Sequence record: NC_052660.1
Strand: one strand, 5' to 3'
DNA length: 64,000 bases
DNA from: Escherichia phage tuntematon
In this document: piece by piece, positions 108-46,522 of the stretch
Numbering within the stretch: the stretch's first letter is position 1
Layout of the letters: each line of letters begins with the position of its first letter
Made by a program: the position numbers and the translations under genes
The notes under the pieces: model-generated
What the model was told of the DNA's origin: nothing
Databases searched by the model: none
The model's input: the letters and a program-made list of their open reading frames with translations, nothing else

Positions 108-422
108 CTATTGGCATTGCACATCCTCCTGTGTAGCATGATCTTTTACCCATTTTATACGGGCAGCATTCAAATGTAGCAGCCCGTTTCTTTGTGCAAA
201 ATCATATTTAAACCAGTCTCCGTCATCAAACGGGTATTCTTCAGACAATCCTGCCTCACGAAATTGCATTTGCATTTCATAATTTAGATCATCGTAACCA
301 CCAGTCCAAAGGTAGAGGCAACTACATAATCCTTTATCATGCCAGAAAGGATTATTATCTGGAGCACCAGCTAACAGCCAGTTATGATATGCCTGATAAA
401 ATTCTTTAAGTTCTTCTGACAT
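108..422 (-). CDS. hypothetical protein (paralog of 3914..4291)
   Basis: ORF-track ORF in tightly packed leftward operon; shares FxxAGLSxxxPFxD...GxLxWVKD pattern with 3914..4291. Confidence 0.6.
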   Translation of the reverse strand: MSEELKEFYQAYHNWLLAGAPDNNPFWHDKGLCSCLYLWTGGYDDLNYEMQMQFREAGLSEEYPFDDGDWFKYDFAQRNGLLHLNAARIKWVKDHATQEDVQCQ

Positions 423-620
423 TTAACCTCCTGTGTACAGTGTTGAAAGATACGCAGCAAAAGCATTCTCCGCTGTTTTCACCTCCTCTTCAAGATCTTC
501 ACGCTCTGCTGGCGTTAATGCATTCCGCACAGCAGCGTCTGCTTCTCGGATTTTTCTTACTAAACGTGAAACATCTTTCAGTTGTTGAAAAGTAGCCATA
601 GTCTTTCTCCTTTTAGTCAA
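423..620 (-). CDS. hypothetical protein
   Basis: ORF abutting neighbours in same operon; RBS upstream. Confidence 0.55.
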   Translation of the reverse strand: MTKRRKTMATFQQLKDVSRLVRKIREADAAVRNALTPAEREDLEEEVKTAENAFAAYLSTLYTGG

Positions 621-864
621 ACCAGTTGTATTCAGAAGGGTAACGAGCGTAGTTTGGCTTGTACCCCAGCCTTTTCATCTTAACAGACATACGAGTGAAG
701 CCAAAAGTTGTTTTGCCCTTAGACATAAACTTCTTCCCACTCTTCATTGGCTTCTTAGGGTCTTTGATCGTCTGGTGTAACGCTCGCGCAAGCCACAAAG
801 TGTATGCGCTAGGCACTTGATTAACTTTCATCTTGTTACCTTTCATCATTTCACCTCGGACCAA
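613..864 (-). CDS. hypothetical basic protein
   Basis: ORF with 8-nt overlap to upstream gene; Lys/Arg-rich. Confidence 0.5.
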   Translation of the reverse strand: MVRGEMMKGNKMKVNQVPSAYTLWLARALHQTIKDPKKPMKSGKKFMSKGKTTFGFTRMSVKMKRLGYKPNYARYPSEYNWFD

Positions 865-1145
865 TCAATAGTGATCCACTCATATGCCCCGTTCAGATCC
901 ATTTCTTTATAAACAATAAGCCCACGCTCACGAAGAATTGCTACTGCTTCATCCATCCACTTCACCTGATTGTAGATCTGCTCTGGGTGGGTGGGAGAAT
1001 TATTCAGACCAAAATCAGATGGCGTGAAATTTCTTGAAGAGTTTCCCGCTCGTGCTTCAGCAAAACATGTCTCGATCACTTCTTCAACAGGGAAGTTGAA
1101 GGAAGCTTCTTTTGCAATACGGCGTAACTGTTCGGTCAGATTCAT
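846..1145 (-). CDS. hypothetical protein
   Basis: ORF in operon; no motif recognised. Confidence 0.55.
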   Translation of the reverse strand: MNLTEQLRRIAKEASFNFPVEEVIETCFAEARAGNSSRNFTPSDFGLNNSPTHPEQIYNQVKWMDEAVAILRERGLIVYKEMDLNGAYEWITIDWSEVK

Positions 1146-1172
1146 CTTATTCTCCTTTCGTTGTGCGAAACA

Positions 1173-1610
1173 TTATAGTAGATCTAATGCTTTCAATTCT
1201 TCTTTCAATGATTCAGGCAGGTCACATTCAACGTCAATCAGAGATAACAAGTGACCAACAATGCCTTCCAGATGTTGATACTCACTATAACTTATAAATT
1301 CAGAATTGTAAACAGAAACATCCTTAGTTTCTTTCACAACTTCCTCCGCAGACACGCACATAAAAAAGTTACGCTCTCCGCGAGCTAACAATATCCCCCA
1401 ACTTCTGAACGGATACTGTCCAGCTTCAATAATATCCCCGCTGTCCAATAAAGTCAATGAGCAAACAGAGCCTGATTCACTAACATCTTCGACGCGGAAA
1501 CAAGACCCTTCAATCAAAGCTGCCATTTTGAAATTTTCATCAGAGATCATAGAGAAAGCTTCACGGGCAGCTTTAGTTTTGAAACAGTAAACAGCATTAA
1601 CTTTAAACAT
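1173..1610 (-). CDS. hypothetical protein, MFK-family paralog 1
   Basis: Starts MFKVNAVY; similar N-terminus and length to 1623..2081 and 2087..2542. Confidence 0.6.
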   Translation of the reverse strand: MFKVNAVYCFKTKAAREAFSMISDENFKMAALIEGSCFRVEDVSESGSVCSLTLLDSGDIIEAGQYPFRSWGILLARGERNFFMCVSAEEVVKETKDVSVYNSEFISYSEYQHLEGIVGHLLSLIDVECDLPESLKEELKALDLL

Positions 1611-1622
1611 AACATTCCCCTC

Positions 1623-2081
1623 TTAAACAAAAGGTACGCCGATGGTAGCAACAACCAAACGTTTATAAACTTCAACCTCTTCTGTAGGATTAGCCATTTT
1701 ATGCTCTGCTGCTTCTTTCAAAGCTTCTTCATAACTTTCAAATCCAGAAATACAGGTGTCATCAGTCATTACAACATACCACTCTTCTTTTGTTGTATCA
1801 ACAGGTTCTTCTTGGGGTTTTCCACGACCACCACGAACACCACCGTCAACAAAATAATCTATATGAGCAGAATTGATTATGTAACGATCCCCATCACCAG
1901 CAGTGATAATACCGTCTCTCATACCTATTACAACCATTGACAAGATATTACCATTTGCATCAGTGCTCAACACCTCGAAAAAATTCTCTCCAATGATAGT
2001 AGCAATACTGTTATCAAAGGTAGAATATAGTCGCATATAATCTTCATCCTGGAAACGGTAGACATGACCTTCTTTGAACAT
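1623..2081 (-). CDS. hypothetical protein, MFK-family paralog 2
   Basis: Starts MFKEGHVY; C-terminal half aligns with 2087..2542 (WYVVMTDD.../WHVVIVGS...). Confidence 0.6.
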   Translation of the reverse strand: MFKEGHVYRFQDEDYMRLYSTFDNSIATIIGENFFEVLSTDANGNILSMVVIGMRDGIITAGDGDRYIINSAHIDYFVDGGVRGGRGKPQEEPVDTTKEEWYVVMTDDTCISGFESYEEALKEAAEHKMANPTEEVEVYKRLVVATIGVPFV

Positions 2082-2086
2082 TGGTT

Positions 2087-2542
2087 TTACTCCTTATCAA
2101 TAGTGATTGTGGCGTTTGCTACTGCAACACGAGCGTAAATCTCAACCGTCTTCGACGGATAATCCTTCTTAGCTTTTGTAGCGACTTCAGAAGCTTTTTC
2201 AAAACTAGAACAAACATCTACACACTCTGATCCTACGATCACAACATGCCATTGTGGTCCTGCTTTACCCATTGTTTCCTCCTTTACTTCTTCAAAATAT
2301 TTAAATTCTTCGTTATCAATCAAATAAGTATACGAATTAAATCCTGCGGTAACACCTGCTGTATAGAGGGTACCATTGATATAAAACTCAAGAACATGAC
2401 CATACTTATCATCTGTATTCATAACTTTGAAAACTTCGTTTCCAATCACTTGGCAAACAGCAATATTTGCTTTGTCATGTGTTGCCATATCTCCTTGGTC
2501 AGCAACGCTTTTGAATTTATAAGTAAGCCCTACTTTAAACAT
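2087..2542 (-). CDS. hypothetical protein, MFK-family paralog 3
   Basis: Start moved to internal ATG (MFKVGLTYKF) 27 codons into ORF-track ORF 2087..2623; ATGTTTAAA overlap with stop of upstream gene. Confidence 0.55.
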   Translation of the reverse strand: MFKVGLTYKFKSVADQGDMATHDKANIAVCQVIGNEVFKVMNTDDKYGHVLEFYINGTLYTAGVTAGFNSYTYLIDNEEFKYFEEVKEETMGKAGPQWHVVIVGSECVDVCSSFEKASEVATKAKKDYPSKTVEIYARVAVANATITIDKE

Positions 2543-2729
2543 GATGTGTTCCTTCTTGTTCAAGAGTAAAAGGAATGATTTCACCGTAGCTGTATCGCAT
2601 AGCATCAACTTCTGCTTCTGCACGTTGTGCTAATTCCAGTGTTGCACAGATTTTATATGGAGTTGTTGTGCACTGACTCCAACCTGGGGTGTTCTTAGTC
2701 ACTAAATATACAGTAGTTCCTTTATTCAT
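2535..2729 (-). CDS. hypothetical protein
   Basis: ORF in operon, stop overlaps next start. Confidence 0.45.
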   Translation of the reverse strand: MNKGTTVYLVTKNTPGWSQCTTTPYKICATLELAQRAEAEVDAMRYSYGEIIPFTLEQEGTHHV

Positions 2730-3183
2730 AACTTTCTCCTCCTAGTTCATCATACCATTTCAAAGCGTCTTTTGGAAGCATACCAAAATCTTCTTTTAGT
2801 TCTTTTTCAATCTCTTCTTTCAGTTCATTCAACACTTGTAGTTGGCGTATTTTCTTCCGTAACAAAGCTTCCTGCTCACTGTTGTTTGGCGTTACTTCGT
2901 TTGCTGTTACCATTACATATCCTGTCGGAGAGCAAGGAAGATAATCATCAATATTTTCTAAAGCATAACGATAATTGGAGTCCAGGAAGTTTACATGCAC
3001 TCGATCACATCCAAACAACGTGGCACGAAATACTTCATAACGAGTTTCAGATAAGATATGTTGCACACAGACAATACCTACATCGTTTTGCACTGCACAG
3101 GTTACATTCAACAAACTTGAGTGTTCTTTGACATAATCTACAACACATTGCACATGCGCTTCTAGTATAGATAGTTGTCTCAT
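2722..3183 (-). CDS. hypothetical protein
   Basis: ORF in operon; C-terminal coiled-coil-like KEEIEKELKE. Confidence 0.55.
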   Translation of the reverse strand: MRQLSILEAHVQCVVDYVKEHSSLLNVTCAVQNDVGIVCVQHILSETRYEVFRATLFGCDRVHVNFLDSNYRYALENIDDYLPCSPTGYVMVTANEVTPNNSEQEALLRKKIRQLQVLNELKEEIEKELKEDFGMLPKDALKWYDELGGESYE

Positions 3184-3419
3184 TTTCTACCTCCCCATAA
3201 TGCTAACATTTTATTGAAAATGGAAACGCGTCGTGCGCGAGATGCCATATCATAATTCATTCTTTCCGTCTCTGCAAGAAATTGATCTACTGTAATCAAC
3301 GCTTTTGTCTTCTCTTTCAGAGTTTGCATATTCATCCATTCACATTCAGAATACCAATTATCGAAATACAAACTATCAAGAAGATCCATTGCTGCTTCAT
3401 TCTGTTGTGGTGTGATCAT
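3180..3419 (-). CDS. hypothetical protein
   Basis: ORF, ATGA-type overlap with neighbour. Confidence 0.5.
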   Translation of the reverse strand: MITPQQNEAAMDLLDSLYFDNWYSECEWMNMQTLKEKTKALITVDQFLAETERMNYDMASRARRVSIFNKMLALWGGRK

Positions 3420-3431
3420 TGCACACAGCCC

Positions 3432-3662
3432 TTAATAAACAATTTCATATTCATGAGGAAAGAAAACATAATCTTCCCCTTCTCGTGCATCTATCTCGTC
3501 CCAAAACCATTCCTGCACTTCCATCATCTTCGAGAATCGCACATGAGCAAGCCCACTGTATTCCACCGTGGCTTCCAACACAAGTGGAAATTTTGCATGT
3601 GCTAATCCTTTATAACCACCATCATTCTCAATACGAATTTTCATGCGTTTCATGTTATGCAT
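3432..3662 (-). CDS. hypothetical protein
   Basis: ORF in operon. Confidence 0.5.
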   Translation of the reverse strand: MHNMKRMKIRIENDGGYKGLAHAKFPLVLEATVEYSGLAHVRFSKMMEVQEWFWDEIDAREGEDYVFFPHEYEIVY

Positions 3663-3864
3663 CCTTCAGACCCTTAATAAAGTAACGACTAACCGGATTC
3701 CCTCGGAAGTATTCGTTAATGAAATCGATAACACACGTTTCACTGCCTGTCACAACGGACGGCTTAAAGTTTTGGAATTCTACAGCTACACGGCTGGCTT
3801 TAGCCAGTGCTTGCACACGTGTAGGATCAGTCAAGAACATTGTGACAGTTTTCAAATTCTTCAT
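3655..3864 (-). CDS. hypothetical protein
   Basis: ORF in operon. Confidence 0.5.
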   Translation of the reverse strand: MKNLKTVTMFLTDPTRVQALAKASRVAVEFQNFKPSVVTGSETCVIDFINEYFRGNPVSRYFIKGLKDA

Positions 3865-3913
3865 TTCATCTCCTCATTAGCTATCTGTTATGTCATCCAC
3901 TATACAGACATTT

Positions 3914-4291
3914 TTATTCAATGCAAGCATTATTTGCATCTTCGATTCTGTCTTTCACCCACTGCAATCTCCCTGGGTTGGTATGACAAGAATGTTTCTT
4001 ACCTTCATCTTCATAACGCAGAAGATCATCATTAAAGGGCAGGAAGGATGATAGCCCAGCACACGTGAATTGCAATTTCATCTCTTCCAGCGTTTTGCTA
4101 CGAACCATTTTGAAATGTTCTATATCTTCTTGCGTAGGCTTTTTCTTTAACATAGTGGTTGCGAGATAATCCATAAGGCAAATACACAAACCAACATTCT
4201 CACGATGCATTGAGGAATGATCTTCCATCCATGCTTTATAGAAGCGAATCAATTCTGCACTGCTCAACGGAACATTTTTACTCTTTTGCAT
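3914..4291 (-). CDS. hypothetical protein (paralog of 108..422), first gene of leftward operon
   Basis: RBS GAGGAGA before ATG at 4291; paralogous to 108..422. Confidence 0.6.
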   Translation of the reverse strand: MQKSKNVPLSSAELIRFYKAWMEDHSSMHRENVGLCICLMDYLATTMLKKKPTQEDIEHFKMVRSKTLEEMKLQFTCAGLSSFLPFNDDLLRYEDEGKKHSCHTNPGRLQWVKDRIEDANNACIE

Positions 4292-4898
4292 GACAATCTC
4301 CTCTCATCGTTAGCCATCTTTCATGGCAATCATCAATCACCAACATCATACGATCAATCTTAGGGAATTACAATCGAATTATCATAGGGGATTCCTATCA
4401 ATTATCCCATATATACCGATTATTTTTGACACCCCACTCTTGTATAAAAAGTAACCCAAAATATCTACGGGGAGAGATTATTTCGACACACCCTGTTTCA
4501 TGGCAATCATGGCAAGAATATCTAATAGAATCAATATCATATGGCAAAAATCATGGCGCATACGTAAGAAGTGCTTAACGCGAATTTTCGGGCCGTCAGG
4601 TCCACGCAGCGACAATTCCCAAATATCATGCGAATGAGAATAATTATCATTCGTATTCAATGACTTATGCAAGGCTTATGCCAACATAGCGACAAGGTGG
4701 GCCACTTGATTATAAATCACACAAACACTTATTTATCAATAGGTTGGCAACTTCATCATATGACGGAACATTGTCAACTAATCCCGCTCATGACAGACGG
4801 ACTATTATTCATATGAGAATGATTATTATTTAAACGTTTATTAACATAAAAACTAAAATAAATCAAGAATTTTCTGATTTTATTTACGTTTAAGAGAA

Positions 4899-5016
4899 GA
4901 TGCTCAACATATCGCTACGCGATAGTATTCGCCCCCGTGATATTTGCTCTTCTCTTAGTGCTCAACATTCCCGCCTGTGGCGGTAACATTTCGCCCCCAA
5001 AATTATTGCTTTTTAT
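4899..5016. repeat. 58-bp tandem direct repeat (2 copies) with internal palindromes
   Basis: tgctcaacat at 4901 and 4959; palindromes tatcgctacgcgata (4910-4924) and ccgcctgtggcgg (4971-4983); ttcgccccc at 4928 and 4990. Confidence 0.7.
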
Positions 5017-5379
5017 TCTATTATGTGCATAGTGTGCAATGTATCGGAATGATGATAATCATCCTCCCATTGCCCCCATAATTATTGCCATGCTAATGAT
5101 TTCATCTTGTAATTACCACAATGATTATTGTTATTGCGCTAATGTTATGATCTTGGTAATTACATATAATGCTAATAATAAGCCAGCGCAATAAGTGTAA
5201 GCGTCATTACGCTTGCAATTATTGCAAGCTACGCAGTAACAAGAAATAACCATCACCGATGGTTATGATTGTTGGGGTGTAGTTGGCTTATTATTAGCTC
5301 GCTATGTGTCCGGCATAGCGTGCTAATGATGATCCTGTGAATGATTCGTTTTGTAATGATTTCATTCAGGCACTATTTT

Positions 5380-5575
5380 GCTAATAGTTGTTATTTTAAT
5401 GGTTTCGTTTGTTATTGTTCGTTAGTTGGTTGTTTTGTCGTGTTATCGTTATCTTGCTTAGTATTCATCATGGTTTGATTGTTTGTCGTTATCAATCATC
5501 TTGCTATTATTCCTTTGATTATGATTAGTTTGCTTATTGTTTTAGGTTGTTGGTTAGTTAGTTGTTGCGAACTAT
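5380..5575. other. strongly strand-skewed GT-rich tract (CA-rich on minus strand)
   Basis: About 200 bp almost devoid of A and C on + strand, with short repeats gttattgtt, cgttatc, ttgctta; no ORF. Confidence 0.7.
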
Positions 5576-5664
5576 TATCAACATTATAGTTATGCACTTA
5601 TATTGCATAGATAAACATGGATAGATGATAATGGTTATCATTGCACTAGAAAGGAGGTAAAAGG

Positions 5665-5763
5665 GTGTTTTTGATGGTTTGTTGTTGGTTGTTGATCGAT
5701 TTTAACCGCTCTAAATGGCTCTCTAACAGCCTGTTACCCTGGGAGGTATGGTTATTCGTTTAA
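5665..5763 (+). CDS. candidate 32-aa Trp-rich small peptide
   Basis: Near-perfect SD AAGGAGGT 5651-5658, GTG 5665 (ATG 5674 in frame), stop 5761-5763; not in ORF track (under 60 aa). Confidence 0.3.
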   Translation: MFLMVCCWLLIDFNRSKWLSNSLLPWEVWLFV

Positions 5764-5847
5764 TGGTTGATTAGCTCGATACCGCGATCTATTCAGTTTT
5801 GTTCTGTGTCGGTTTTTCATAGGCGGAATCTATCAACATTATTCAGG

Positions 5848-5876
5848 CAAAAAGAAAGGGCGCTTAGTGCGCCCCT
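5848..5876 (-). terminator. intrinsic terminator after gene 5891..6310
   Basis: Hairpin gggcgc-ttagt-gcgccc 5858-5874 followed on minus strand by TTTCTTTTT. Confidence 0.7.
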
Positions 5877-5890
5877 TGTTTTGTTGTCAA

Positions 5891-6310
5891 TTATAACGCT
5901 TCATAGATTGAGTAGATCCGGTTCGCCAGGTCATTACGAAAGCGGAATTTTTCATCACGTTTAATCATCAGATCCTTAAAACCGCATTCTTTCAAGGCTT
6001 CATTAACTTTATGGCGGCAAACGTTCATATTATCTTGCGCGTCACCAATAAACTTATTACTGTGATGCATTGCTTTGATCTCTTCCTCTAATACCAGGGC
6101 AACTACACGGATCGGATCAAGCTGATATGCGGTAACATCCATGCGGCATTGTAAACGGCTTTTAACATCGTTTACCGGATATACTGCAACCTCTTCCCCG
6201 TCAACGTTCACGATAACCAATTTACCATCGATTTCGAAGCCTTTGGCGGCGCTACCGTGACAAAAAGCGTTATCGAAGGAGTAAGCTGGATTATTTGATT
6301 TAATGTTCAT
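5891..6310 (-). CDS. hypothetical early protein
   Basis: ORF with RBS AAAGGA; promoter 6356-6384 upstream. Confidence 0.6.
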   Translation of the reverse strand: MNIKSNNPAYSFDNAFCHGSAAKGFEIDGKLVIVNVDGEEVAVYPVNDVKSRLQCRMDVTAYQLDPIRVVALVLEEEIKAMHHSNKFIGDAQDNMNVCRHKVNEALKECGFKDLMIKRDEKFRFRNDLANRIYSIYEAL

Positions 6311-6355
6311 GGTGTTGTCCTTTGTTTCGTTTCGTTGTTTGCTGCCAGTGAGTTA

Positions 6356-6384
6356 AATATAATATAACGCCGATCCCCTGTCAA
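6356..6384 (-). promoter_or_regulatory. sigma70-like early promoter (no leader hairpin)
   Basis: -35 TTGACA (rc 6379-6384) inside inverted repeat atcccct/aggggat, 17-nt spacer, -10 TATATT (rc 6356-6361). Confidence 0.55.
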
Positions 6385-6422
6385 TAGGGGATAGCGCATT
6401 ATTTACATTTCTTTACGTTAAA

Positions 6423-6439
6423 GGGCGCTTGGTGCGCCC
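6423..6439 (-). terminator. terminator-like hairpin after gene 6451..6819
   Basis: gggcgc-ttggt-gcgccc, same hairpin family as 5858 and 12054; weak T-run. Confidence 0.45.
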
Positions 6440-6450
6440 CTTGTATAATC

Positions 6451-6819
6451 TTACTTTGTGCGGTTGTGAACGTTATCGCGTTCAACCATCAGGGCAAGGC
6501 GGATCAGTTGATCAGTTGTATCGCGTAAATTGTCGGGCCATGTTTTACTGTTCCAGCTATCCATGTTTGATTGTATATAGGTTTCAATGGCTTGATCCAT
6601 ATTATCAAACAAGTTTTCCTCCAGGCTCTCGGCTGTTTCACACTGGAAAGCATTAGCGACACTATTAATCAATAAGCAAGCCAGTAAATCAGCATTACGC
6701 CAATTTTTACGGATAGTTTCATCTGTCAGATAACCAACGAGATTAACCTTTGCGCCAGTGGTTGACGTTGCGATCACTTCTTGCGCTTTTTCAAGTGCTT
6801 TAATTGCTGATTTGCTCAT
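6451..6819 (-). CDS. hypothetical early protein
   Basis: ORF-track ORF; RBS AGAGGAAAATAAA. Confidence 0.6.
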   Translation of the reverse strand: MSKSAIKALEKAQEVIATSTTGAKVNLVGYLTDETIRKNWRNADLLACLLINSVANAFQCETAESLEENLFDNMDQAIETYIQSNMDSWNSKTWPDNLRDTTDQLIRLALMVERDNVHNRTK

Positions 6820-6840
6820 TTTATTTTCCTCTTTGTGGGC

Positions 6841-6896: not shown

Positions 6897-6897
6897 G

Positions 6898-9958: not shown

Positions 9959-10243
9959 TTATTTTTTAATGTTTTGCCCTACAAAATTGATCACTTCCTT
10001 AAGCTGTTTCTCAGTCATGATCGTGCCTGGTAGTTCCTCTTTGATTTCTTCCGGTAAATAGATATTACCGCGCCAGGTTAACAAACAACCGTTTTGATCT
10101 TCGCAGATAGAATAAGAAAACATCCACTCGCAATCATTTTCAAGCTCCCAAAAACACAAAAAGTCTTCTTTCCCTAAGTTTTCAACGGTTAAACATAATC
10201 CGCGACGTGCTGCATAATTAGTTAGGCTTTTTGTTATTTTCAT
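9959..10243 (-). CDS. hypothetical early protein (94 aa)
   Basis: Start moved 17 codons in (MKITKSLTNY); the ORF-track N-terminus is hairpin-encoded. Confidence 0.55.
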   Translation of the reverse strand: MKITKSLTNYAARRGLCLTVENLGKEDFLCFWELENDCEWMFSYSICEDQNGCLLTWRGNIYLPEEIKEELPGTIMTEKQLKEVINFVGQNIKK

Positions 10244-10262
10244 GATTTTTCTCTCTTCTTGT

Positions 10263-10320
10263 GAGCGGCACCATTGCCGCCCTACAAGATACATATTATC
10301 AGACTAGGCGGACTTGTCAA
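10263..10320 (-). promoter_or_regulatory. PeSL-like promoter + leader stem-loop
   Basis: -35 TTGACA (rc 10315-10320), -10 TAATAT (rc 10293-10298), hairpin gcggca-ccat-tgccgc 10265-10280. Confidence 0.65.
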
Positions 10321-12023: not shown

Positions 12024-12053
12024 TTTTGTTTATCCTCTACATGTAAAAAGAAA

Positions 12054-12070
12054 GGGCGCTTGGTGCGCCC
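12054..12070 (-). terminator. intrinsic terminator or leader hairpin
   Basis: gggcgc-ttggt-gcgccc followed on minus strand by TTTCTTTTT. Confidence 0.55.
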
Positions 12071-17150: not shown

Positions 17151-17348
17151 TTATTCTATCCCTGCAATTTGATTAACGCGCTTGCATTTTGTAGCGTGCT
17201 GGTCTTCTGTAATGACTCCCATTTCTAACAGGGAATCAATGAAAGATAAAACCGTTTCATGATCATCCTGGGGATGACTGAACTCAGTAAAACCGTTTAC
17301 TATTACGTTGATTTGTCCAGCTTTCGCCACAATGTGCAATGTTGCCAT
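17151..17348 (-). CDS. hypothetical early protein (65 aa)
   Basis: Start moved 30 codons in (MATLHIVAKAGQ); ORF-track N-terminus is hairpin-encoded. Confidence 0.5.
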   Translation of the reverse strand: MATLHIVAKAGQINVIVNGFTEFSHPQDDHETVLSFIDSLLEMGVITEDQHATKCKRVNQIAGIE

Positions 17349-17369
17349 GATCTTAACTCCAAATAGTGA

Positions 17370-17426
17370 GCGGCACCATTGCCGCGCTACGTGGTAAATA
17401 TTATGCCGCCACCTGGCGAACGTCAA
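17370..17426 (-). promoter_or_regulatory. PeSL-like promoter + leader stem-loop (first of array)
   Basis: -35 TTGACG (rc 17421-17426), -10 TAATAT (rc 17398-17403), hairpin 17370-17385. Confidence 0.6.
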
Positions 17427-18139: not shown

Positions 18140-18190
18140 TGCATTTCCATATGAGAACCCTTCTCATTCTCACCTGCATAAAAATTTTTG

Positions 18191-18368
18191 TAAACTTTAA
18201 ATTTTGCTTTTGTACTTTCATTTTTGTAAAAGCAAAAAAACTTTAAATACTGTGGGCGCGCAAAATTTTTAAAATTTTCCTTGACTTTTGAGTTTTGTTT
18301 TGTATCTAACATTTTAAGATAATTTTCCTAAACTTTAAATTTTGGTTTTCAACTTTCACTTTTGTAAA
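18191..18368. repeat. 40-bp direct repeat, 2 copies about 138 bp apart
   Basis: taaactttaaattttgcttttgtactttcatttttgtaaa (18191-18230) vs taaactttaaattttggttttcaactttcacttttgtaaa (18329-18368), about 35/40 identical. Confidence 0.6.
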
Positions 18369-18610
18369 TTCTTAAAAAGTTTAAATAATTTGAGGAATTT
18401 TTGAGATAACAAGTAGTGGTAATTTGAGATAACCTTTAATCTTATTGGCAGACCTTCAGGAACCCACCTAGATCGAATCCTAATGATGCAAACTGAAAAA
18501 GATAAGTGTTTGTATAGGACAAAATAATAGGCTCTCTACGGTGCTGTAGGAGCCTTATTTCTGTGCTACAAAGTGACACCTTTGTTCTAAAAATGAAAAA
18601 AGTTAAAATA

Positions 18611-21909: not shown

Positions 21910-22265
21910 TAGAACGTTTCTCCTTTTAAAATAATTACTGTAAACTTTGCAGTTTTTTCACTCTTAATATTCTTGACTAATAAGTACTCTCCTCCAGGGG
22001 CATCTTTGTATTGTTTAATAGCTACTATTTCATTTTTGCAAGTAGCTATAATCGAATAAAAAGGACGTTCCGTGTTATCTTCTTTTCCTGTATATGCCTC
22101 AACATCTTGGCACTCTTCCAGAACACCATTTCCAGGTGTATAGTAAAATTTGTTGCCTGTGATTACAACATCTTTACCAATATCCGTTTTAACTGCTACA
22201 AATTTTTGAGCGTAAGTGGTGAAGCTTACGGTAGCCAGCAATGTGGCTAAGATTAATTTTTTCAT
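21909..22265 (-). CDS. secreted protein (signal peptide)
   Basis: Start moved 10 codons in to MKKLILATLLATVSFTTYAQ (RBS GGAGGGAAG); signal-peptide-like. Confidence 0.55.
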   Translation of the reverse strand: MKKLILATLLATVSFTTYAQKFVAVKTDIGKDVVITGNKFYYTPGNGVLEECQDVEAYTGKEDNTERPFYSIIATCKNEIVAIKQYKDAPGGEYLLVKNIKSEKTAKFTVIILKGETF

Positions 22266-39342: not shown

Positions 39343-40317
39343 ATGCAACTTGGTTTCCCAATTATTGATGTAGTTGTTTTAGTTGGTATTTTAGCATTGT
39401 CTATTGGTATTGATTTCTTTGGTCACAAAGAAAATAAAGAAATTTCATTCAAATCCGCAGTTGGTTGGTCGATCTTTTGGATTGGTGTATCATTAGCTTA
39501 TTATGGTTTTGTATACTTCCAACATGGTGCCGATTTTGCTAACTTGTTTTTAAGTGGATATGTGTTGGAAAAATCTTTGTCGGTAGATAACTTGGTAGTA
39601 TTTGTAGCAGTATTCGCAAGTTTTGGTATTAAAAGCACACACTTGCAGCACAAGATTCTACTTTGGGGTATTGCAGGTGCGATTGTCTTCCGAGGTGTGT
39701 TTGTAGCAGTAGGCACTTACTTGTTAAGTTTGGGCTGGTATGTTAATATCTTCTTCGGTGCGGTCATCCTTTTCTGTGCAGCTAAAATGGTATTTGCTGG
39801 AGATAATGACGCAGAAGTTGATTACTCTAAACACTGGGCTACCCGTATTGTTCGTAAACTGTTCCCTGTATCTAATAAAATGGATGGGGAGAAGTTCTTC
39901 ACAATCGAAAATGGTGTTCGTGTAGCAACTCCAGCTTTGGTTTGCGTATTCGTGATGGAAATGGTGGATGTAATCTTTGCAGTAGATTCGGTTCCAGCGG
40001 TGATCGCAGTGACACAAGAACCCCTGCTTGTATTCTCTTCGATGTTATGTGCAATCTTAGGTCTACGTGCTCTGTTCTTTGTTCTTAGTGTCGCACTGAA
40101 GTATCTGGTTCACTTGGAGAAAGCAGTTATTGTGGTTCTGGTGTTTGTAGGCGTTAAACTGATGTATCACCCGTTTGCAGAAACATTGCATGAGAAAATC
40201 AGTTTCCTGCCAGCACATATTGATCCAACTGTTAGTATGTATATCGTGCTTGGTACTTTGGCCCTTGGTGTTATTGCAAGCTTTATCTTCCCTGAAAAAG
40301 AAGAAGCTACTGTTTAA
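39343..40317 (+). CDS. TerC-family integral membrane protein
   Basis: Polytopic membrane protein with LEKSLSVDNLVVFVAVF motif typical of TerC. Confidence 0.6.
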   Translation: MQLGFPIIDVVVLVGILALSIGIDFFGHKENKEISFKSAVGWSIFWIGVSLAYYGFVYFQHGADFANLFLSGYVLEKSLSVDNLVVFVAVFASFGIKSTHLQHKILLWGIAGAIVFRGVFVAVGTYLLSLGWYVNIFFGAVILFCAAKMVFAGDNDAEVDYSKHWATRIVRKLFPVSNKMDGEKFFTIENGVRVATPALVCVFVMEMVDVIFAVDSVPAVIAVTQEPLLVFSSMLCAILGLRALFFVLSVALKYLVHLEKAVIVVLVFVGVKLMYHPFAETLHEKISFLPAHIDPTVSMYIVLGTLALGVIASFIFPEKEEATV

Positions 40318-40323
40318 TAAATG

Positions 40324-40348
40324 AGCCTCCTTCGGGAGGCTATTTTAT
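40324..40348 (+). terminator. rho-independent terminator
   Basis: agcctcc-ttcg-ggaggct then ATTTTAT. Confidence 0.75.
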
Positions 40349-40359
40349 AGGAGAGACTT

Positions 40360-40710
40360 ATGAGTAATTTTGATGAAATTCAAGAACTTGTTTGGGATTT
40401 ATCTGGTGATGTGGATTACATTTCAGATTATCTTTCAAAAGTTTACCCTGGGGTAAGCGTTATGATTGTGACCAAAGATCCAATTAATTTGCCTCCTAAT
40501 GTTGTAGCTTGTTGTGGAAGTGGTTCAGGAGAAGTAGAGCCTGTATCTCGTTGGGAATTAACTAAAGCTGTTTCAAAACGAAACGGTGAAGTTTTGAATA
40601 TTGATATTGAGCAAATATGGACTTCTCCAGCAGCCAAATGGAATGATCCAAATGGTTGGGATTTGTTCTTCTGGGATAATGAGACTGATGATGAGGTGTT
40701 TTTAAAATGA
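40360..40710 (+). CDS. hypothetical protein
   Basis: ORF-track ORF; RBS AGGAGAG. Confidence 0.55.
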   Translation: MSNFDEIQELVWDLSGDVDYISDYLSKVYPGVSVMIVTKDPINLPPNVVACCGSGSGEVEPVSRWELTKAVSKRNGEVLNIDIEQIWTSPAAKWNDPNGWDLFFWDNETDDEVFLK

Positions 40711-40893
40711 AATACTTGTTGGTTGTGTTTGAAAATATCTGTTTTGCAATAGGGTTGTTTGTTGTAATTTTTGTATTGACAAGCGTAATCAACGGCAGTA
40801 AAGTGAGTTTATACCGAGATGGAGAGCAACTTTATTGCTTCTCTGGAGATTTCAAACACAGATGTATTAATAGCCAAAACGAGGAAAGCAAAT

Positions 40894-41331
40894 ATGAAAA
40901 AACTAGCCCTGATTTTAATTGGTTGTATCTTTTTAACAGCTTGCGAGGATGAAACAAATCCTGCACAATACCAACAACCTCCTCAACAATACGCTCAACA
41001 AGGATCTGACGGAGATACAACTATTATCAACAATGGTGGCGGTTCTAGTAGTAGCGGTGTTGGTGAGTTTGCTACAGGTATGTTGTTAGGGCATATGATG
41101 AGTGGCGGTAGTAATCGTAACAGTGGGGATTATAACGATAACAGAACGATTATTAATAAGCATTATAATACACCTAAACCGAAAACTAATTTTTATGGTA
41201 AGCCTAAACAAGAGATAAAAACTTATGAAAAGCCGAGACAAACTTTTAAAACAAATAGTAGCTATACAACTCGTAAATCTTACAATAGCCCTTTAAGTAA
41301 AAAGAGTTCATCTCGTAGCAAGCGACGTTAA
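40894..41331 (+). CDS. lipoprotein, low-complexity Q/P/S/G/N-rich
   Basis: Start moved to ATG 40894 (MKKLALILIGCIFLTAC lipobox) behind RBS GAGGAAAG. Confidence 0.5.
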   Translation: MKKLALILIGCIFLTACEDETNPAQYQQPPQQYAQQGSDGDTTIINNGGGSSSSGVGEFATGMLLGHMMSGGSNRNSGDYNDNRTIINKHYNTPKPKTNFYGKPKQEIKTYEKPRQTFKTNSSYTTRKSYNSPLSKKSSSRSKRR

Positions 41332-41345
41332 TAAGGAGAAAAACA

Positions 41346-41939
41346 ATGACAATTTCTATTCGTACTTCCATCGTAGGTGTTAAAAGGTTGCCTAATGCTT
41401 TGCAAATCACACGCGCTTTGAGGGATACATTCTCTGCTGTGGACGAGCATAAGATGCTTGATAATCTTTCAAATTGGCCCTATTTCCATTATTTTAAAAA
41501 TGAAGATGACGAGTTTATAGACGCTGTTTCTTATGGTTATGATTTCGGTAAGGAGGTTTCTGCTGAAGAATTTGTAGCTATGGTGTTCCCAAACGGTTTG
41601 CCTACTCGCAGTAAACGTAAAAAAGGACCAAAAAACAAGAAACGTGCTACTAATAAAGCTACCATTTTCTTTACTGATGGCACACAATATACGATTAAAG
41701 ATTTTGAAGAGGTATCTTATACAGCAGGTGGGAATCTTTCTTTCTACACCATCAAAAAACAAAACTCTACGTTCAGCCATGTTTCTAACATGATTGAAAT
41801 GTTAGTAGAAGATATTGAAAGCGTAGCTGTGTTAGGTATGCATAAAAGCTTTTTAATTACAAATATTTCAGATTTCAGTGCAAGTTTATCTGGCCCTGAT
41901 TTTGAAGCCACGACCACACATTTCGCTTTTAAGGTGTAA
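41346..41939 (+). CDS. hypothetical protein
   Basis: ORF-track ORF. Confidence 0.55.
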   Translation: MTISIRTSIVGVKRLPNALQITRALRDTFSAVDEHKMLDNLSNWPYFHYFKNEDDEFIDAVSYGYDFGKEVSAEEFVAMVFPNGLPTRSKRKKGPKNKKRATNKATIFFTDGTQYTIKDFEEVSYTAGGNLSFYTIKKQNSTFSHVSNMIEMLVEDIESVAVLGMHKSFLITNISDFSASLSGPDFEATTTHFAFKV

Positions 41940-41942
41940 GTT

Positions 41943-42533
41943 ATGCATACCGAGAGAGACTTGCAACTCTTGTGGTGGGAAGTGATGCAGGAAATAAAAG
42001 AAGATTTTCCTGTTTACTACAACATGTTACGTGAAGCAGGATATAAAGCTTGTGTTAGAAACAAAGTGAATAACTCTTTCGGTTGGTGCAACTACCGAGA
42101 TAAAATTGTTGTTGTAAATTGGCACTTGCATAAGAACTCCACAAGAGATATGATCGTGGATACAATGAAGCACGAAATTGCTCATGCTATTGATGGTTGT
42201 ATGGGTAAGTTTAGTAGGCACGGTGCTCATTGGCAAAAACTGGCAGCAGAATTAGGGGCTAATCCTAAAGCCACTTCCAAAGAGCCGTTGAACCACGAAT
42301 ATAAATATGTTCTTGTTCTGGTAGATAGGTTTGCGACAAGATGTGTTAGAGGTTATAATCGTAAACCTAATCGCATGTACCCAGGTAAGCAACCTAATAT
42401 GTGGTTGAAATCAGATAAAGAAGGGACCGAAGGAAAATTATGGTTGTATAAATGGGACGATTGGGTTAAAGTAGCTAAAGAGTACGGTGTTTCACCATAT
42501 ATAAGAGATGCAGAAGAGGAGAATGAAGAATGA
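41943..42533 (+). CDS. SprT-like zinc metallopeptidase
   Basis: HExxH motif MKHEIAHAIDG with downstream His; SprT-like length. Confidence 0.55.
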   Translation: MHTERDLQLLWWEVMQEIKEDFPVYYNMLREAGYKACVRNKVNNSFGWCNYRDKIVVVNWHLHKNSTRDMIVDTMKHEIAHAIDGCMGKFSRHGAHWQKLAAELGANPKATSKEPLNHEYKYVLVLVDRFATRCVRGYNRKPNRMYPGKQPNMWLKSDKEGTEGKLWLYKWDDWVKVAKEYGVSPYIRDAEEENEE

Positions 42534-43642
42534 CAAGTCCATTTTTAAAAGCAGCTACTGGTGGTCAGAAGAAGCCTGAAATGAGCGTATTTGCTGCAAC
42601 AACAGATGCAAGTAAATCTGTATTCGCTCCAAGCGTGTTAGATGCCAGTCCTGTTTATGCACCAGCGGCACCGCAAGAAGTTCCAGTTTTGCCTTCTATG
42701 ACCCGACAAGAGATCGAAGAGATTGGGGCAGAGGCAGGAACAACCTTGCGTTCCTTGAATGCCGAGGTATTAAAACATCAACGTAGTAATCAAGGCGATC
42801 AGATGAGTGAACGACTCACAGCTTTGATTAAACAGGCAAAACAACTTGATCCAAACTCTATTAAACAAAGCAAGGGTATTACTAAACTCATTAAAAAAGT
42901 TATGGGTATGAAAGAAGACCTGTTTGGGGAGTTTGATAATGTTAATAACCGTATTGAAGAGTTGGTAAAGAACCTTCAAATGGATATTCGCAAAGAAGAA
43001 GATTCCTTGGTATATCTTGAAAAGCTACATCAAGCTATTGGACAGTATGCTGCAAGTTTGAACCGAGATATGCAGCTTCTAACAGCAACCTATGAAAAAG
43101 AAGAACAAGCTTTGGCTGCTCTTCCAGAAGATGCAGTAGAACAGCGACAAGTGATCCGAGATACTTTGGATCTTCTGGAGATTCGTATTGCAGATTTAAA
43201 AGCATTGCGCCTACTGTGTGTCCAAATGGGACCGCGTGTACAAGGTATGCAAAAAGTTTCTGCAAGCTTAATGCGATCTGCGCGTAACATAGTAAATAAT
43301 GTTATTCCTGCTTACTCTGCTAACTTCTCAATGTATATCGAGAGCTTACGTCAAATGAAAGCAGCAGAGACGCAGAATAACGTTCTTGATGAATTTAACC
43401 TGGCAATTAAACTGGGTAGCGATCTTGCCACACAGAATCAGATCGAAGCAGCAGCACTGGCTAACCGTCAAGTGTTGGATATTGAAACTCTGCGTCACGA
43501 TCAGGAAAACTTGGTTAAGATGTTGGAAGAAACTAACCGCATCAATACGGAAGCCCGTGCTGCTCGTGTTGATTATATTAATGAAGTTCAATCTCTGGAA
43601 GACGGGATGGTAGCTGCTGTGAAACGAGGGCTTGGTAAATGA
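42530..43642 (+). CDS. TelA-like (toxic anion resistance family) coiled-coil protein
   Basis: 370-aa mostly helical protein of TelA-like size, sitting between TerC and TerD genes; family call is tentative. Confidence 0.45.
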   Translation: MTSPFLKAATGGQKKPEMSVFAATTDASKSVFAPSVLDASPVYAPAAPQEVPVLPSMTRQEIEEIGAEAGTTLRSLNAEVLKHQRSNQGDQMSERLTALIKQAKQLDPNSIKQSKGITKLIKKVMGMKEDLFGEFDNVNNRIEELVKNLQMDIRKEEDSLVYLEKLHQAIGQYAASLNRDMQLLTATYEKEEQALAALPEDAVEQRQVIRDTLDLLEIRIADLKALRLLCVQMGPRVQGMQKVSASLMRSARNIVNNVIPAYSANFSMYIESLRQMKAAETQNNVLDEFNLAIKLGSDLATQNQIEAAALANRQVLDIETLRHDQENLVKMLEETNRINTEARAARVDYINEVQSLEDGMVAAVKRGLGK

Positions 43643-43833
43643 GAATCCGTATCTATATAATTGATGAAGACATTGGTGTCCGTTATGATGACGAAAAACG
43701 ATTCGCACCGATGGGAGGTATATATCCCCCAAGTGTTCTAGCAGTTTGTCGTGATTGTTATATTTATGAAGGTTGTCGTAACTTCCGTAAATTCGAACTC
43801 CTTGCAGATATTGACTTCAATGAGGAGGAGTAA
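43639..43833 (+). CDS. hypothetical Cys-containing protein
   Basis: ORF-track ORF, ATGA overlap. Confidence 0.5.
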   Translation: MRIRIYIIDEDIGVRYDDEKRFAPMGGIYPPSVLAVCRDCYIYEGCRNFRKFELLADIDFNEEE

Positions 43834-44006
43834 TGAAAATATTACGAGTGAATATTGAAACTGCTTGGTGTGGATGCAATGAGGTTGTGGATATCGAAAT
43901 TGAAGATGATATGTCTCAAGAGGATATAGAAGATCTTGCACACGAAACCTTTCAGGATTATTGTAATTACGGGTTCCATATTTTAGAGGAGGAAGAAGAT
44001 GTATAA
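43833..44006 (+). CDS. candidate 57-aa acidic protein
   Basis: Hand-translated MKILRVNIETAWCGCNEVVDIEIEDDMSQEDIEDLAHETFQDYCNYGFHILEEEEDV; TAATG overlap; not in ORF track. Confidence 0.4.
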   Translation: MKILRVNIETAWCGCNEVVDIEIEDDMSQEDIEDLAHETFQDYCNYGFHILEEEEDV

Positions 44007-44397
44007 TCCAACAGGTATTCTTTTAAAACTTACAGTAACAGACCCTACTCTTTTCACCAAGTTAGCAAGTGGTGAAGTTTATGAAGTAATGAAAGATGAT
44101 GACGGTTGGTGTTATCTTTGTGGCTACTTCCTCTGTGATGCAGAAGAGTTAGAATCCATTGTAACTAAAGGTTTTTATGAAGAACCAGGGTTCCGTGTGG
44201 AAACTACGCAGAAACCTGATACCATTACGTTGACTCGACAGGAACTGATCACAATCATTGAAGATGCTTTTATTGATGGCTGGAATACACAAGATAATGA
44301 CTGGGGTGGACCCGAAGCTTTTCTGGAACATCATAAAGCTTATGGAGAATTTTGTGAAACCACTGTAGCTCTTGATAATCTGAAGGAGGGTTTGTAA
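43999..44397 (+). CDS. hypothetical protein
   Basis: ORF-track ORF. Confidence 0.55.
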   Translation: MYNPTGILLKLTVTDPTLFTKLASGEVYEVMKDDDGWCYLCGYFLCDAEELESIVTKGFYEEPGFRVETTQKPDTITLTRQELITIIEDAFIDGWNTQDNDWGGPEAFLEHHKAYGEFCETTVALDNLKEGL

Positions 44398-44960
44398 TGG
44401 GTTGTTTTAGTTTTTTGTGCAAAGAATCGGGCAAAGCTGCCCTTTCTACTTCTTTCGACGGATCGCCTTGCTACCTCTTTCTTTTGAAGGACGGTGTTGT
44501 TATTGAAGAGATGTATGGCAACTATGATAGTTATGGTTGTGTTTTCTCTGGAAAGGAGGATGAAAATGGTGTTCGTGAACGATTTGAATGGGCTATGGAT
44601 TGGAGTAAGGTTTGTGATTTGATGCATTCCTCAAATCCAAGGGACGGTATCGCTATGGTGCTGGAAGAGTACTTTACAGGTGAAATCCCTACAGAACAAT
44701 CTGACGGAGATCCTAACCAAGGTTGGGGTGATGGTGAAGAAGATCCAGATTGTTTTTTCAGCACAGAAAAGAATAAGTTTAAACGTGTTGACAACCCTTA
44801 TCACAAAGTGCATAATACTCTCATTGAAACAGAAGATGACAAGATGGAAATTGAAGAAGATGATCCTCTTGTAACACTTCCTATAAGTGAGTTACAAAAG
44901 ATCACTAAGGAAGCTTACGATTTGGGCTTCAAAATTGGTAGAGGAGGTATGCGTGTTTAG
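44397..44960 (+). CDS. hypothetical protein
   Basis: ORF-track ORF. Confidence 0.55.
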   Translation: MGCFSFLCKESGKAALSTSFDGSPCYLFLLKDGVVIEEMYGNYDSYGCVFSGKEDENGVRERFEWAMDWSKVCDLMHSSNPRDGIAMVLEEYFTGEIPTEQSDGDPNQGWGDGEEDPDCFFSTEKNKFKRVDNPYHKVHNTLIETEDDKMEIEEDDPLVTLPISELQKITKEAYDLGFKIGRGGMRV

Positions 44961-45231
44961 ATTCAATATTCAAGAAGAAAAAAGTCAGGATTTACCTATT
45001 GCTTTCGAAGATCTTGACGTAGGGGCCACATTCATGTATTATGATGCCTATGAAGACGCAGGGTTGGATACCTACCGTAACTTGGTGTTCATTAAAAATT
45101 CCACAAACAGTGCGATCTGTATTAATGGATCACTAGCACAACGAGGCTATACTCATTGCATCCCACCAGATACAAATATGGTGGAAGTAGATTTAGAAGT
45201 TACCAATATTACACTTAAGAAGGAGAAATAA
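44953..45231 (+). CDS. hypothetical protein (paralog of 46253..46522)
   Basis: Start moved to GTG 44953 behind GGAGGT; FRFNIQEEK...DLDVGATF aligns with LNFEIDEQK...DLDVGDTF. Confidence 0.45.
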   Translation: MFRFNIQEEKSQDLPIAFEDLDVGATFMYYDAYEDAGLDTYRNLVFIKNSTNSAICINGSLAQRGYTHCIPPDTNMVEVDLEVTNITLKKEK

Positions 45232-45232
45232 T

Positions 45233-46027
45233 ATGTCCGAGAAAATCAGCCTGAAAAAACGTCAAGAAAACCTTGCTTTCTCTCTGAAAAAGAATAAGAA
45301 CCTGAATGAAGGTAAGATTGTTCTTCGTGTAGCATGTGCTCTAGATATTTCTGGTAGTATGCATGGTCTATATTCTAGTGGGGTAGTGAGTGATTTTGTA
45401 GGTAAACTGCTTCCTTTTGGTATGCTGTTCGACGATAATCAACAAATTGATATGTGGGCCTTCAATACGAGTTCCCAAGAGCTTACTCCAGCAACAGCAG
45501 ATGTTTACGATGACTATGTTGGTAAATGTATGCGTAATGTTCGTATCGGAGGTGGAACAAATTACGCCCCTGTAATGGCAGATATCTACGATGAGTATTT
45601 TGGCACTGTTACCAAATATATTACCACTAAACAAGTGGTACAAGAGGAGGCTCCAAAGAAAGGCTTCTTTAATCGTCTGCTTGGTAAAACTGAAACAGTA
45701 TCTGTAGAGCGTGAAAAGGTTGTAGCTGTATCTGAACCAGGTGCTGACGTTACCCCTGGTGTTGTATTCTTCCAGACAGACGGTGAGAATGGTGATCCTA
45801 GTGCTGTTCGTCGTCTTATTGAAGAGAATAAGAATAAACCTATTTATTGGTTCATGGTTGGCGTTGGTAATGAGAAGTTTGGCTTCCTGAAAGAACTGGC
45901 AAATGCTTATGATAATGTTGGTTTTATTGGCATTAAAGATTTAGACTTGACAGATTCAGAGCTTTATGACAAACTCTTATCTGAAGAGTTCGGAGAGTGG
46001 GTTGTTAAAGTAGGTGCTAAAAAATGA
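45233..46027 (+). CDS. von Willebrand factor A domain protein (TerY-like)
   Basis: MIDAS motif DISGSM near N-terminus of a Rossmann-like region. Confidence 0.6.
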   Translation: MSEKISLKKRQENLAFSLKKNKNLNEGKIVLRVACALDISGSMHGLYSSGVVSDFVGKLLPFGMLFDDNQQIDMWAFNTSSQELTPATADVYDDYVGKCMRNVRIGGGTNYAPVMADIYDEYFGTVTKYITTKQVVQEEAPKKGFFNRLLGKTETVSVEREKVVAVSEPGADVTPGVVFFQTDGENGDPSAVRRLIEENKNKPIYWFMVGVGNEKFGFLKELANAYDNVGFIGIKDLDLTDSELYDKLLSEEFGEWVVKVGAKK

Positions 46028-46272
46028 TCGACGAGCTTGCCTCTCAAGTCATAGAAAATTATTGGCGCGAGAGAGAAGCTTTCATTATGCGCAGTCTCAA
46101 AGAGTATTTCATTGGGACTGTGCGAATGGAAGATATTGTAAGTAGAGTAGAGATTCATGTATGGCCCGATTATGAAGAATGGGTTGACAAAGAAAATGAA
46201 AATGCTATAATTCTTCGTATATACAAACCGGAGATAACATTAGGAGGAAGAAGTGTTAAACTTCGAAATTGA
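46024..46272 (+). CDS. hypothetical protein
   Basis: ORF-track ORF, ATGA overlap. Confidence 0.5.
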   Translation: MIDELASQVIENYWREREAFIMRSLKEYFIGTVRMEDIVSRVEIHVWPDYEEWVDKENENAIILRIYKPEITLGGRSVKLRN

Positions 46273-46522
46273 TGAGCAAAAAGTAAATAAACGATGCCTT
46301 ACCATTAAAGATTTGGATGTAGGAGATACTTTCGTCTATGAAAATGCATTTGACGAAAATGGTTTAGACCTTAGTGAAATCATTGTTTATTTAAAAGTAG
46401 ATGATGGGGAAAATGATTATTCTGCTGTAGAACTAAACCATCATGCACAATTAGTATCAATCCAAAACACATCTAAGCTTTTGGAAGTAGAATTGACTGT
46501 AACTGGTATTACACTTAAATAA
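46253..46522 (+). CDS. hypothetical protein (paralog of 44953..45231)
   Basis: GTG start; shared DLDVG.TF and LEV.LTVT.ITLK blocks. Confidence 0.5.
   Translation: MLNFEIDEQKVNKRCLTIKDLDVGDTFVYENAFDENGLDLSEIIVYLKVDDGENDYSAVELNHHAQLVSIQNTSKLLEVELTVTGITLK

Follow-up and report, generated by a model that had tools for sequence, protein, structure and literature searches.

Paralogous gene families in a 64-kb window of Escherichia phage tuntematon

Five gene families in the window

The stretch of 64,000 nucleotides (nt) from Escherichia phage tuntematon (NC_052660.1) that was analysed here, called the window throughout, carries five families of paralogous genes, designated A to E. An earlier note had listed them as tandem families of small accessory genes, generated by local duplication and divergence under host-range or anti-defence selection. 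All open reading frames (ORFs) named in that note are present, at the coordinates listed below. The first 6 kb of the window match approximately 130 phage records, the best being those of Phapecoctavirus (phAPEC8-like, Stephanstirmvirinae) with 95-97% nucleotide identity; judged by its sequence, the window represents the genome of a Phapecoctavirus (phAPEC8-like) phage. Genes are located on the minus strand up to ~24.9 kb, on the plus strand up to ~60.2 kb, and on the minus strand thereafter. The minus strand carries families A and B, and the plus strand families C, D, and E. Their members, with lengths in amino acids (aa), are the following.

A1, 108..422, minus strand: 104 aa, five-helix acidic protein, presumed early, ortholog of phAPEC8 gp30, phrog_2510
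A2, 3914..4291, minus strand: 125 aa, family A, phrog_2510
B1, 1173..1610, minus strand: GoF-like N-domain and a C-terminal region without significant similarity to B2 or B3
B2, 1623..2081, minus strand: GoF-like N-domain, linker, and small α/β C-domain; putative parent of the phAPEC8 gp24 chimera
B3, 2087..2542, minus strand: GoF-like N-domain (residues 1-86), disordered linker (89-95), and C-domain (98-138)
C1, 27484..27792, plus strand: 102-aa acidic protein, phrog_7812
C2, 27792..28097, plus strand: 101-aa tandem paralog of C1, phrog_7812
D1, 44953..45231, plus strand: 92 aa, GTG start, phrog_11278, directly upstream of a vWA-TerF-like gene
D2, 46253..46522, plus strand: 89-aa paralog of D1, GTG start, between an 82-aa gene and TerD
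E1, 49708..50655, plus strand: 315-aa glycosyltransferase (GT), phrog_7162, third of four consecutive GT genes
E2, 50663..51607, plus strand: 314-aa GT, phrog_7162, fourth GT gene, upstream of the primase/helicase

An all-against-all BLASTP comparison was made of the 203 same-strand ORFs of the window, Smith-Waterman scores were held against those of 1000 shuffles per pair, and the proteins were grouped independently by means of PHROG profiles; Pfam, NCBIfam, and PDB were also searched. Families A to E provided the five best non-self BLASTP matches, namely E1/E2 (41% identity, E 1e-74), C1/C2 (45%, E 1e-21), B2/B3 (28%, E 1e-13), D1/D2 (33%, E 8e-11), and A1/A2 (31%, E 6e-9). The match between B1 and B3 was weaker (29% identity over the N-terminal 97 aa, E 0.012). 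For none of the pairs did any of the 1000 shuffles reach the observed Smith-Waterman score, the z values being 18.9 for A, 24.8 for B2/B3, 31 for C, 21.7 for D, and 110 for E, while B1 gave 5.4 with B2 and 6.7 with B3. A PHROG profile is common to the members of each family: phrog_2510 in A, phrog_7812 in C, phrog_11278 in D, and phrog_7162 in E; B1, B2, and B3 all match both phrog_3710 and phrog_5347. The paralogy is thus genuine in all five cases, and the observation of five families stands because the alignments did not reveal an absence of significant similarity in any of them. At 28-45% aa identity, the families are heterogeneous and old.

Parts of the first description have to be adjusted. 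The term tandem applies to B1-B2-B3, C1-C2, and E1-E2, which are adjacent, but not to A1/A2, which are 3.5 kb apart, or to D1/D2, with two genes between them. A1 and A2 share the motif AGLSxxxPFxD, as had been seen, but the literal GRLQWVKD is found in A2 only, the common form being R-[LI]-x-W-V-K-D. The GT genes are indeed paralogs, although they lie beyond position 46522, the end that had been given for the region.

Family B and its similarity to GoF

The three genes of family B, the products of which start with MFK, form a tandem as described before, but B1 is not related to the other two over its full length: only the ~95 N-terminal aa are common to all three, and B2 and B3 also share their C-domain. 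The N-domain adopts, in models, a five-stranded antiparallel β-barrel of SH3/FeoA-like topology. The B3 model has a predicted local distance difference test score (pLDDT) of 86.8 and a predicted template-modelling score of 0.56, with the pLDDT falling below 50 in the linker at 89-95. Using hhalign, the profile of the B N-domain was aligned with T4 GoF over 86 columns (GoF residues 5-90) with a probability of 95.4-95.6% and an E of 1e-8. Direct matches were weak, both to the PHROG profiles phrog_13003 (goF, E 4e-4) and phrog_2980 (E 3e-3) and to Pfam FRD2 (E 0.0067; 17.6 bits, under the 29-bit cut-off). On account of the alignment with GoF, family B belongs to the GoF/MotB.1/Frd.2 family of LSm-like proteins, the range of which thus extends beyond the Tevenvirinae. 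That family has been described in Tevenvirinae, where its three genes are scattered over the genome; its hallmarks include early expression and an influence on mRNA stability, the latter known only for the GoF D25Y mutant, and wild-type GoF is without established function (PMC12152347). The homology of the N-domain (GoF residues 1-91), the barrel, and the flexible linker leading to varied C-domains are also seen in B1-B3. Family B differs in that it is present in Stephanstirmvirinae and takes the form of a tandem array of two, three, or four genes, depending on the relative examined, in which chimeras and a double-domain fusion occur.

The variation within the array can be followed in some detail. 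Of the 54 records with a match to B3, only 22 hold an ortholog of it, and B3 shares an indel cassette (2084-2734) with a 64-aa gene at 2535-2729. The latter was considered as a stand-alone version of the C-domain of B2/B3 and rejected (z <0 compared with shuffles). A 261-aa relative (ECO340P1 locus L005, 2542-3327) carries two MFK N-domains. The gene for gp24 of phAPEC8 is 97% identical to B2 over nt 1-269 and, over nt 259-450, matches the 3' end of the 261-aa gene with 98.4% identity, the junction being located inside the KPQEEP linker common to both. From these sequences, gp24 is a clean chimera and the product of unequal recombination, B2 and the 261-aa gene presumably being the parents. 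Natural chimeras of this kind show the N- and C-domains as exchangeable units and offer a ready design for domain-swap experiments. Two other mosaic proteins were noticed in the P0045, P0046 set, one joining the N-terminus of a 3432-3662-type gene to the C-terminal half of the 261-aa protein and the other, also GoF-like, combining a B3-type N-domain with a different C-domain.

The ratio of nonsynonymous to synonymous substitution rates (dN/dS, or omega) is 0.19 for B1, 0.31 for B2, and ~1.0 for B3. The last value is based on 6 synonymous and 23 nonsynonymous differences (Sd 6, Nd 23) in 13 variable codons, 10 of which are amino-acid-changing and 3 synonymous-only; B3 may be drifting or diversifying.

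Family A

Family A had been presented as a pair. The paralogy of A1 and A2 holds, but the family is larger: the left-end region of phAPEC8 contains six members (gp18, gp19, gp30, gp41, gp44, and gp51), three of which fall beyond the left edge of the window. Both A1 (E 8e-29) and A2 (E 1.2e-22) match phrog_2510 over their full length, and copies in relatives are tagged VOG7392. PHROG 2510 and pVOG VOG7392 are automatic clusters and carry no functional assignment. An AlphaFold 2 model of A1 consists of five helices (pLDDT 91.2). With tblastn, family A was found in 157-167 phage records, including those of Schitoviridae, Autographiviridae, and Drexlerviridae, as well as in phages of Rhizobium, Erwinia, Achromobacter, and Ralstonia, often close to the genome end. 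A profile built of 36 members retrieved 1,482 clusters (at 50% identity) at E<=1e-3 and 650 at E<=1e-10. Many of these clusters represent 200-344-aa proteins with two or three A-domains, and the sole fusion partner seen was DUF551. Sequence and profile searches yielded no relatives of family A in Pfam, NCBIfam, or PDB. A protein homolog search with A1 only gave nothing beyond its ortholog cluster, and a search of viral contigs for related loci, using the alignments of A and B, was empty.

The two copies in the window have had different histories. Within the genus, A1 is almost invariant (dN/dS 0.01 at dS 0.2). A2 shares no more than 50-54% identity with its positional homologs in seven Phapecoctavirus genomes but 90-94% with the copies in Justusliebigvirus; its position is occupied by a tandem pair in 6 of 7 relatives and by a single gene in the window and in vB_Ec-G1. 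In a neighbour-joining tree, A1 joined a Drexlerviridae protein (48% identity, compared with 32% to A2), and A2 joined the alleles of the sister genus (89%). In the same tree, gp18/gp19 and gp41/gp44 were mutual nearest relatives within phAPEC8. Because of this placement and the identities of A2, A1 and A2 are deep paralogs, and allele replacement has taken place in the A2 slot. The contrast between a nearly frozen A1 and a replaced A2 indicates which copies to use in testing conserved versus variable host targets.

It is tempting to go further, and tentatively family A might be seen as an unrecognised, widespread five-helix superfamily that expands in tandem and serves as a modular binder of host factors, with its copies either locked, as A1, or swapped, as A2. 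If so, the left genome end would be a natural domain-shuffling workshop for host-takeover proteins, alongside the linker-recombining GoF-like array. Family A, which has a confidently modelled fold (pLDDT 91) and lacks both a Pfam model and a neighbour among solved structures, is in any case abundant enough to merit a family definition and a functional screen.

Family C

The C genes are arranged head-to-tail, and phrog_7812 is the only family that they match. Family C was detected at 159 places in 125 records, for which reason a second copy is possible in at most 34 of the 125 genomes. Phage phi92 has one C copy, fused behind an extra N-terminal region. Purifying selection acts on C1 as well as on C2 (omega 0.08-0.19). 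The locus is a mosaic: in TSP7_1, C1 is 80% identical as opposed to 96-100% for its neighbours, and Schickermooser has no C2, with only 57% identity in the gene that follows. C2, and likewise D2, may have arisen either by local duplication or by acquisition.

Families D and E in conserved modules

The D genes are part of a Ter-like module on the plus strand (39343..47140), the Pfam matches of which are above the curated cut-offs.

39343-40317, plus strand: TerC (PF03741, 133 bits)
41943-42533, plus strand: SprT-like protease (above the Pfam cut-off)
42530-43642, plus strand: TelA (PF05816, 116 bits)
45233-46027, plus strand: vWA-TerF-like (PF10138, 130 bits)
46538-47140, plus strand: TerD (PF02342, 99 bits)

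The complete order is TerC, SprT-like, TelA, a 187-aa gene, D1, vWA-TerF-like, an 82-aa gene, D2, and TerD. D1 and D2 had been said to flank the vWA gene; they are paralogs and D1 does adjoin it, but the 82-aa gene separates it from D2. TerC, TelA, TerD, and a vWA (TerF/TerY-type) gene occur in one cluster, as in known Ter clusters, and judged by its gene content this lytic coliphage has a Ter-type stress module that is complete. The genes surrounding the D pair are the same, at the level of Pfam, as those of Ter clusters, and phi92-type relatives annotate them as stress or toxic-anion resistance proteins. D1 and D2 themselves match none of the families of these clusters: neither the two proteins nor their profile had any match in Pfam, NCBIfam, or PDB, and they do not fall within a described Ter family. 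The possibility that D shares the SH3-like domain of B was rejected (hhalign probability 0.1%).

The 14 best-matching Phapecoctavirus records are collinear with the D/E region over its full length (100% coverage, 97-99% nucleotide identity), and at least 80% of the region is covered in 63 records. Omega in the D module is at most ~0.2. The sister genus also keeps the Ter module and differs in its number of TerD copies: the Justusliebigvirus phage Paula is without D2 and the 82-aa gene and has two TerD-size genes at that position. In a comparison with phiWec181, D1 and D2 were the fastest-evolving proteins of the module, with 52% and 44% aa identity, respectively, as against 74-91% for vWA and TerD (TerD 91%).

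E1 and E2 are the last of four GT genes in a row (48463-51607) that immediately precede the primase/helicase gene. The other two, at 48463..49718 on the plus strand, are not related to them.

48463..49718, plus strand: two further GT genes, unrelated to E1 and E2, one matching phrog_14179 and the other phrog_2456, with a weak TAGT-like match

E1 and E2 matched phrog_7162, 'glycosyltransferase', with E 1e-144 to 1e-148. In Pfam, E2 scored 25.1 bits with Glyco_trans_1_2, just above the cut-off of 25, and the 22.8 and 20.4 bits of E1 with models of the Glyco_trans_1 group fell short of the respective cut-offs (27 and 25). PDB searches with E1, as with B3, were empty. In their C-terminal halves, both GTs contain the stretch SNLKILEAGAKG[IL]P, which suggests that both copies are intact. 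Each has a separate ortholog in Justusliebigvirus (73-76% identity), and the duplication is thus older than the split between Phapecoctavirus and Justusliebigvirus. Strong purifying selection acts on both (omega 0.02-0.10). As to function, one GT of the run (GT-b) has weak TAGT (TET-associated) and β-glucosyl-HMC (hydroxymethylcytosine)-α-glucosyltransferase-like matches, and E1 has distant matches to GTs of actinophages. The relatives encode rmlABCD, for the dTDP-rhamnose pathway (phAPEC8 copy at L003 37131-40409), which makes dTDP-rhamnose a plausible donor. DNA, the virion, and a host glycan are all conceivable targets.

Clusters of phage GT genes are represented by the DNA glucosyltransferases of T-even phages and the GTs of actinophages. 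With its four GT genes next to replication genes and the weak similarities just mentioned, the window resembles them; it differs in that neither modified DNA nor glycosylated virions are in evidence. Relevant literature on the GTs of phAPEC8, or on paralogs in this subfamily, was not found.

Origin and maintenance of the copies

The families can probably best be understood as five independent, old sets of paralogs that fall into two classes, namely recombination-prone cassettes (A, B, and C) and fixed duplicates within modules (D and E). A, B, and C encode small soluble proteins and are located, to both sides of the strand switch at ~24.9 kb, among small genes that are for the most part uncharacterised; the small paralogs are acidic (pI 4.1-5.1), with the exception of A2 (pI 6.5). 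These would be early genes. Homologous genes in tandem or close to each other may misalign in the course of replication or co-infection; the outcomes observed are the gain or loss of copies, chimeras joined at the linker, and replacement of whole alleles from related phages. In family B, an LSm-like N-domain of SH3 topology, a flexible linker, and a swappable C-domain would together act on RNA or on a host factor associated with RNA, and specificity would come from the C-domain. Each copy of family A would likewise bind a host target, a conserved one in the case of A1 and a varying one for the A2 slot. D1 and D2 may be subfunctionalised small proteins of the TerC/TelA/vWA/TerD stress-type module, and E1 and E2 would be two of four GTs that probably add successive sugars onto one acceptor.

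Local duplication and divergence, as originally proposed, agrees with the copy number and alleles of A, B, and C, which vary between genomes with 93-99% identical flanks, and with the chimera gp24. These events were not recent, however, in view of the GT duplication that precedes the split of the two genera and of A1 being nearer to a Drexlerviridae protein than to A2. Nor does the label of small accessory genes suit D and E, both of which reside inside a conserved module under strong purifying selection. The small paralogs should therefore not be pooled, as D and E belong to conserved Ter and GT modules.

A somewhat unlikely alternative is that the paralogs are xenologs, captured separately from other phages, and that their adjacency merely marks insertion hot spots. 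The grouping of A1 with a Drexlerviridae protein and of A2 with Justusliebigvirus alleles would fit such a history, as would the spread of the 1,482 clusters of family A over many phage groups, the absence of C2 and D2 from the sister genus, and the visible mosaicism of the loci. It is difficult to reconcile, however, with the strict head-to-tail order of B, C, and E, in which stop and start codons overlap or abut, and with the pairs gp18/gp19 and gp41/gp44, which are each other's nearest relatives within phAPEC8. Moreover, gp24 and the 261-aa protein with its two domains point to recombination within the B locus, and the many family A chains of two or three domains point to local duplication.

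Still less likely is an arms race, in which the small paralogs, as inhibitors of defence or as decoys, would be under diversifying selection for anti-defence or host range. The genes are small and mostly acidic, their products are soluble, and copy number and alleles differ among near-identical genomes. D1 and D2 evolve fastest in their module at greater divergence, and B3 has a dN/dS of ~1. Anti-defence genes are often located near the ends of phage genomes, and family A is found near genome ends in phages of the Autographiviridae and Schitoviridae. Selection, however, argues for the opposite: dN/dS indicates purifying selection on A1, B1, B2, C1, C2, D1, E1, and E2, and B3, with few substitutions, gives the ratio expected under neutrality. 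For D2, zero substitutions were available for measurement. Purifying selection dominates among the copies. Searches of Pfam, NCBIfam, and PDB gave no functional match for the small proteins, and E is a pair of enzymes rather than inhibitors. A small protein of Stephanstirmvirinae with no assigned function, Ksap2, is sensed by the defence protein Avs2 (PMC11564622), which lends the idea some appeal. Ksap2 was considered as a member of one of the families and rejected: its gene lies between those for the ribonucleotide reductase subunits, outside the window, and the protein is unrelated to all five.

That the similarity within A-E is due to chance or faulty ORF calling, as it is in two further BLAST pairs (9333/9703 and 9959/17151), is practically impossible and already refuted by the shuffles and PHROG profiles, since it extends over whole proteins or domains, surpasses every shuffle, and was found again with independent profiles; in addition, dozens of genomes retain these genes as ORFs.

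Comparison with other large phages

The presence of five families is in itself ordinary, a normal feature of large phage genomes and not a new system, because paralog families are to be expected in large phages. Sets of paralogs have reportedly been seen in T4-, T5-, and rV5-like genomes. The multigene families of large virulent phages likewise consist of small early genes of unassigned function, with diverged copies that vary between close relatives. Specific to the present case, with direct evidence, are a crossover located in a linker and an allele common to the sister genus. Also specific are the homology to GoF, which brings the GoF/MotB.1/Frd.2 family outside the Tevenvirinae as a tandem array, and family A, on account of how large and how isolated in structure it is.

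Repeats and non-coding elements

Between 7150 and 17400, a region of minus-strand genes, an intergenic cassette is repeated; the largest repeat families have 12 copies at 7.1-17.4 kb. On the coding (minus) strand, the cassette combines a TTGACA-N17-TAxxAT promoter-like site with a GC hairpin (GGCGGCAATGGTGCCGCC) behind it; with <=3 mismatches allowed, the hairpin core was matched 8 times, against an expectation of 0. Those copies that were examined (e.g., 10239-10293 and 17344-17398) immediately precede the start codon of a small gene. ORFs that are extended upstream over the cassette yield false protein 'paralogs'. The BLAST pairs 9333-9536/9703-9957 and 9959-10294/17151-17438 were rejected as paralogs, their similarity being confined to N-terminal ORF extensions; the extensions at 10264-10284 and 17369-17389 coincide with copies of the repeated promoter-hairpin element.

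Adjoining A2 is an ORF-poor gap of 1.6 kb (4300-5890), which is 97% conserved in phage UP17 and unannotated in phAPEC8. Scans of the gap for tRNAs and Rfam families were empty. It contains ~7 Fur-box-like sites, with 10 strand-hits at <=5 mismatches to GATAATGATAATCATTATC as compared with 0.32 expected (0 of 300 simulations); of the hits of this kind in the 64-kb window, it accounts for one third. Possible roles of these sites are iron-responsive promoters, titration of Fur, or binding of another protein. A minor cluster of Fur-box-like hits is found at 18-20 kb. Two direct repeats of 72 nt, 82% identical and 138 nt apart, occupy an AT-rich stretch at 18183-18392, and a related third copy of their 26-nt core is located at 21930.

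A terminator-like hairpin, AAAGGGCGCTT(A/G)GTGCGCCC, is present at three intergenic sites (5844-5874, 6409-6439, and 12040-12070), and on the minus strand the one at 5855-5877 has the score of an intrinsic terminator. Finally, some of the matching records are named after Campylobacter, Acinetobacter, Klebsiella, or Dompiswa phages and are, in the regions compared, 94-99% identical to E. coli phages, which suggests mislabelled hosts or contaminant phages behind these submissions.

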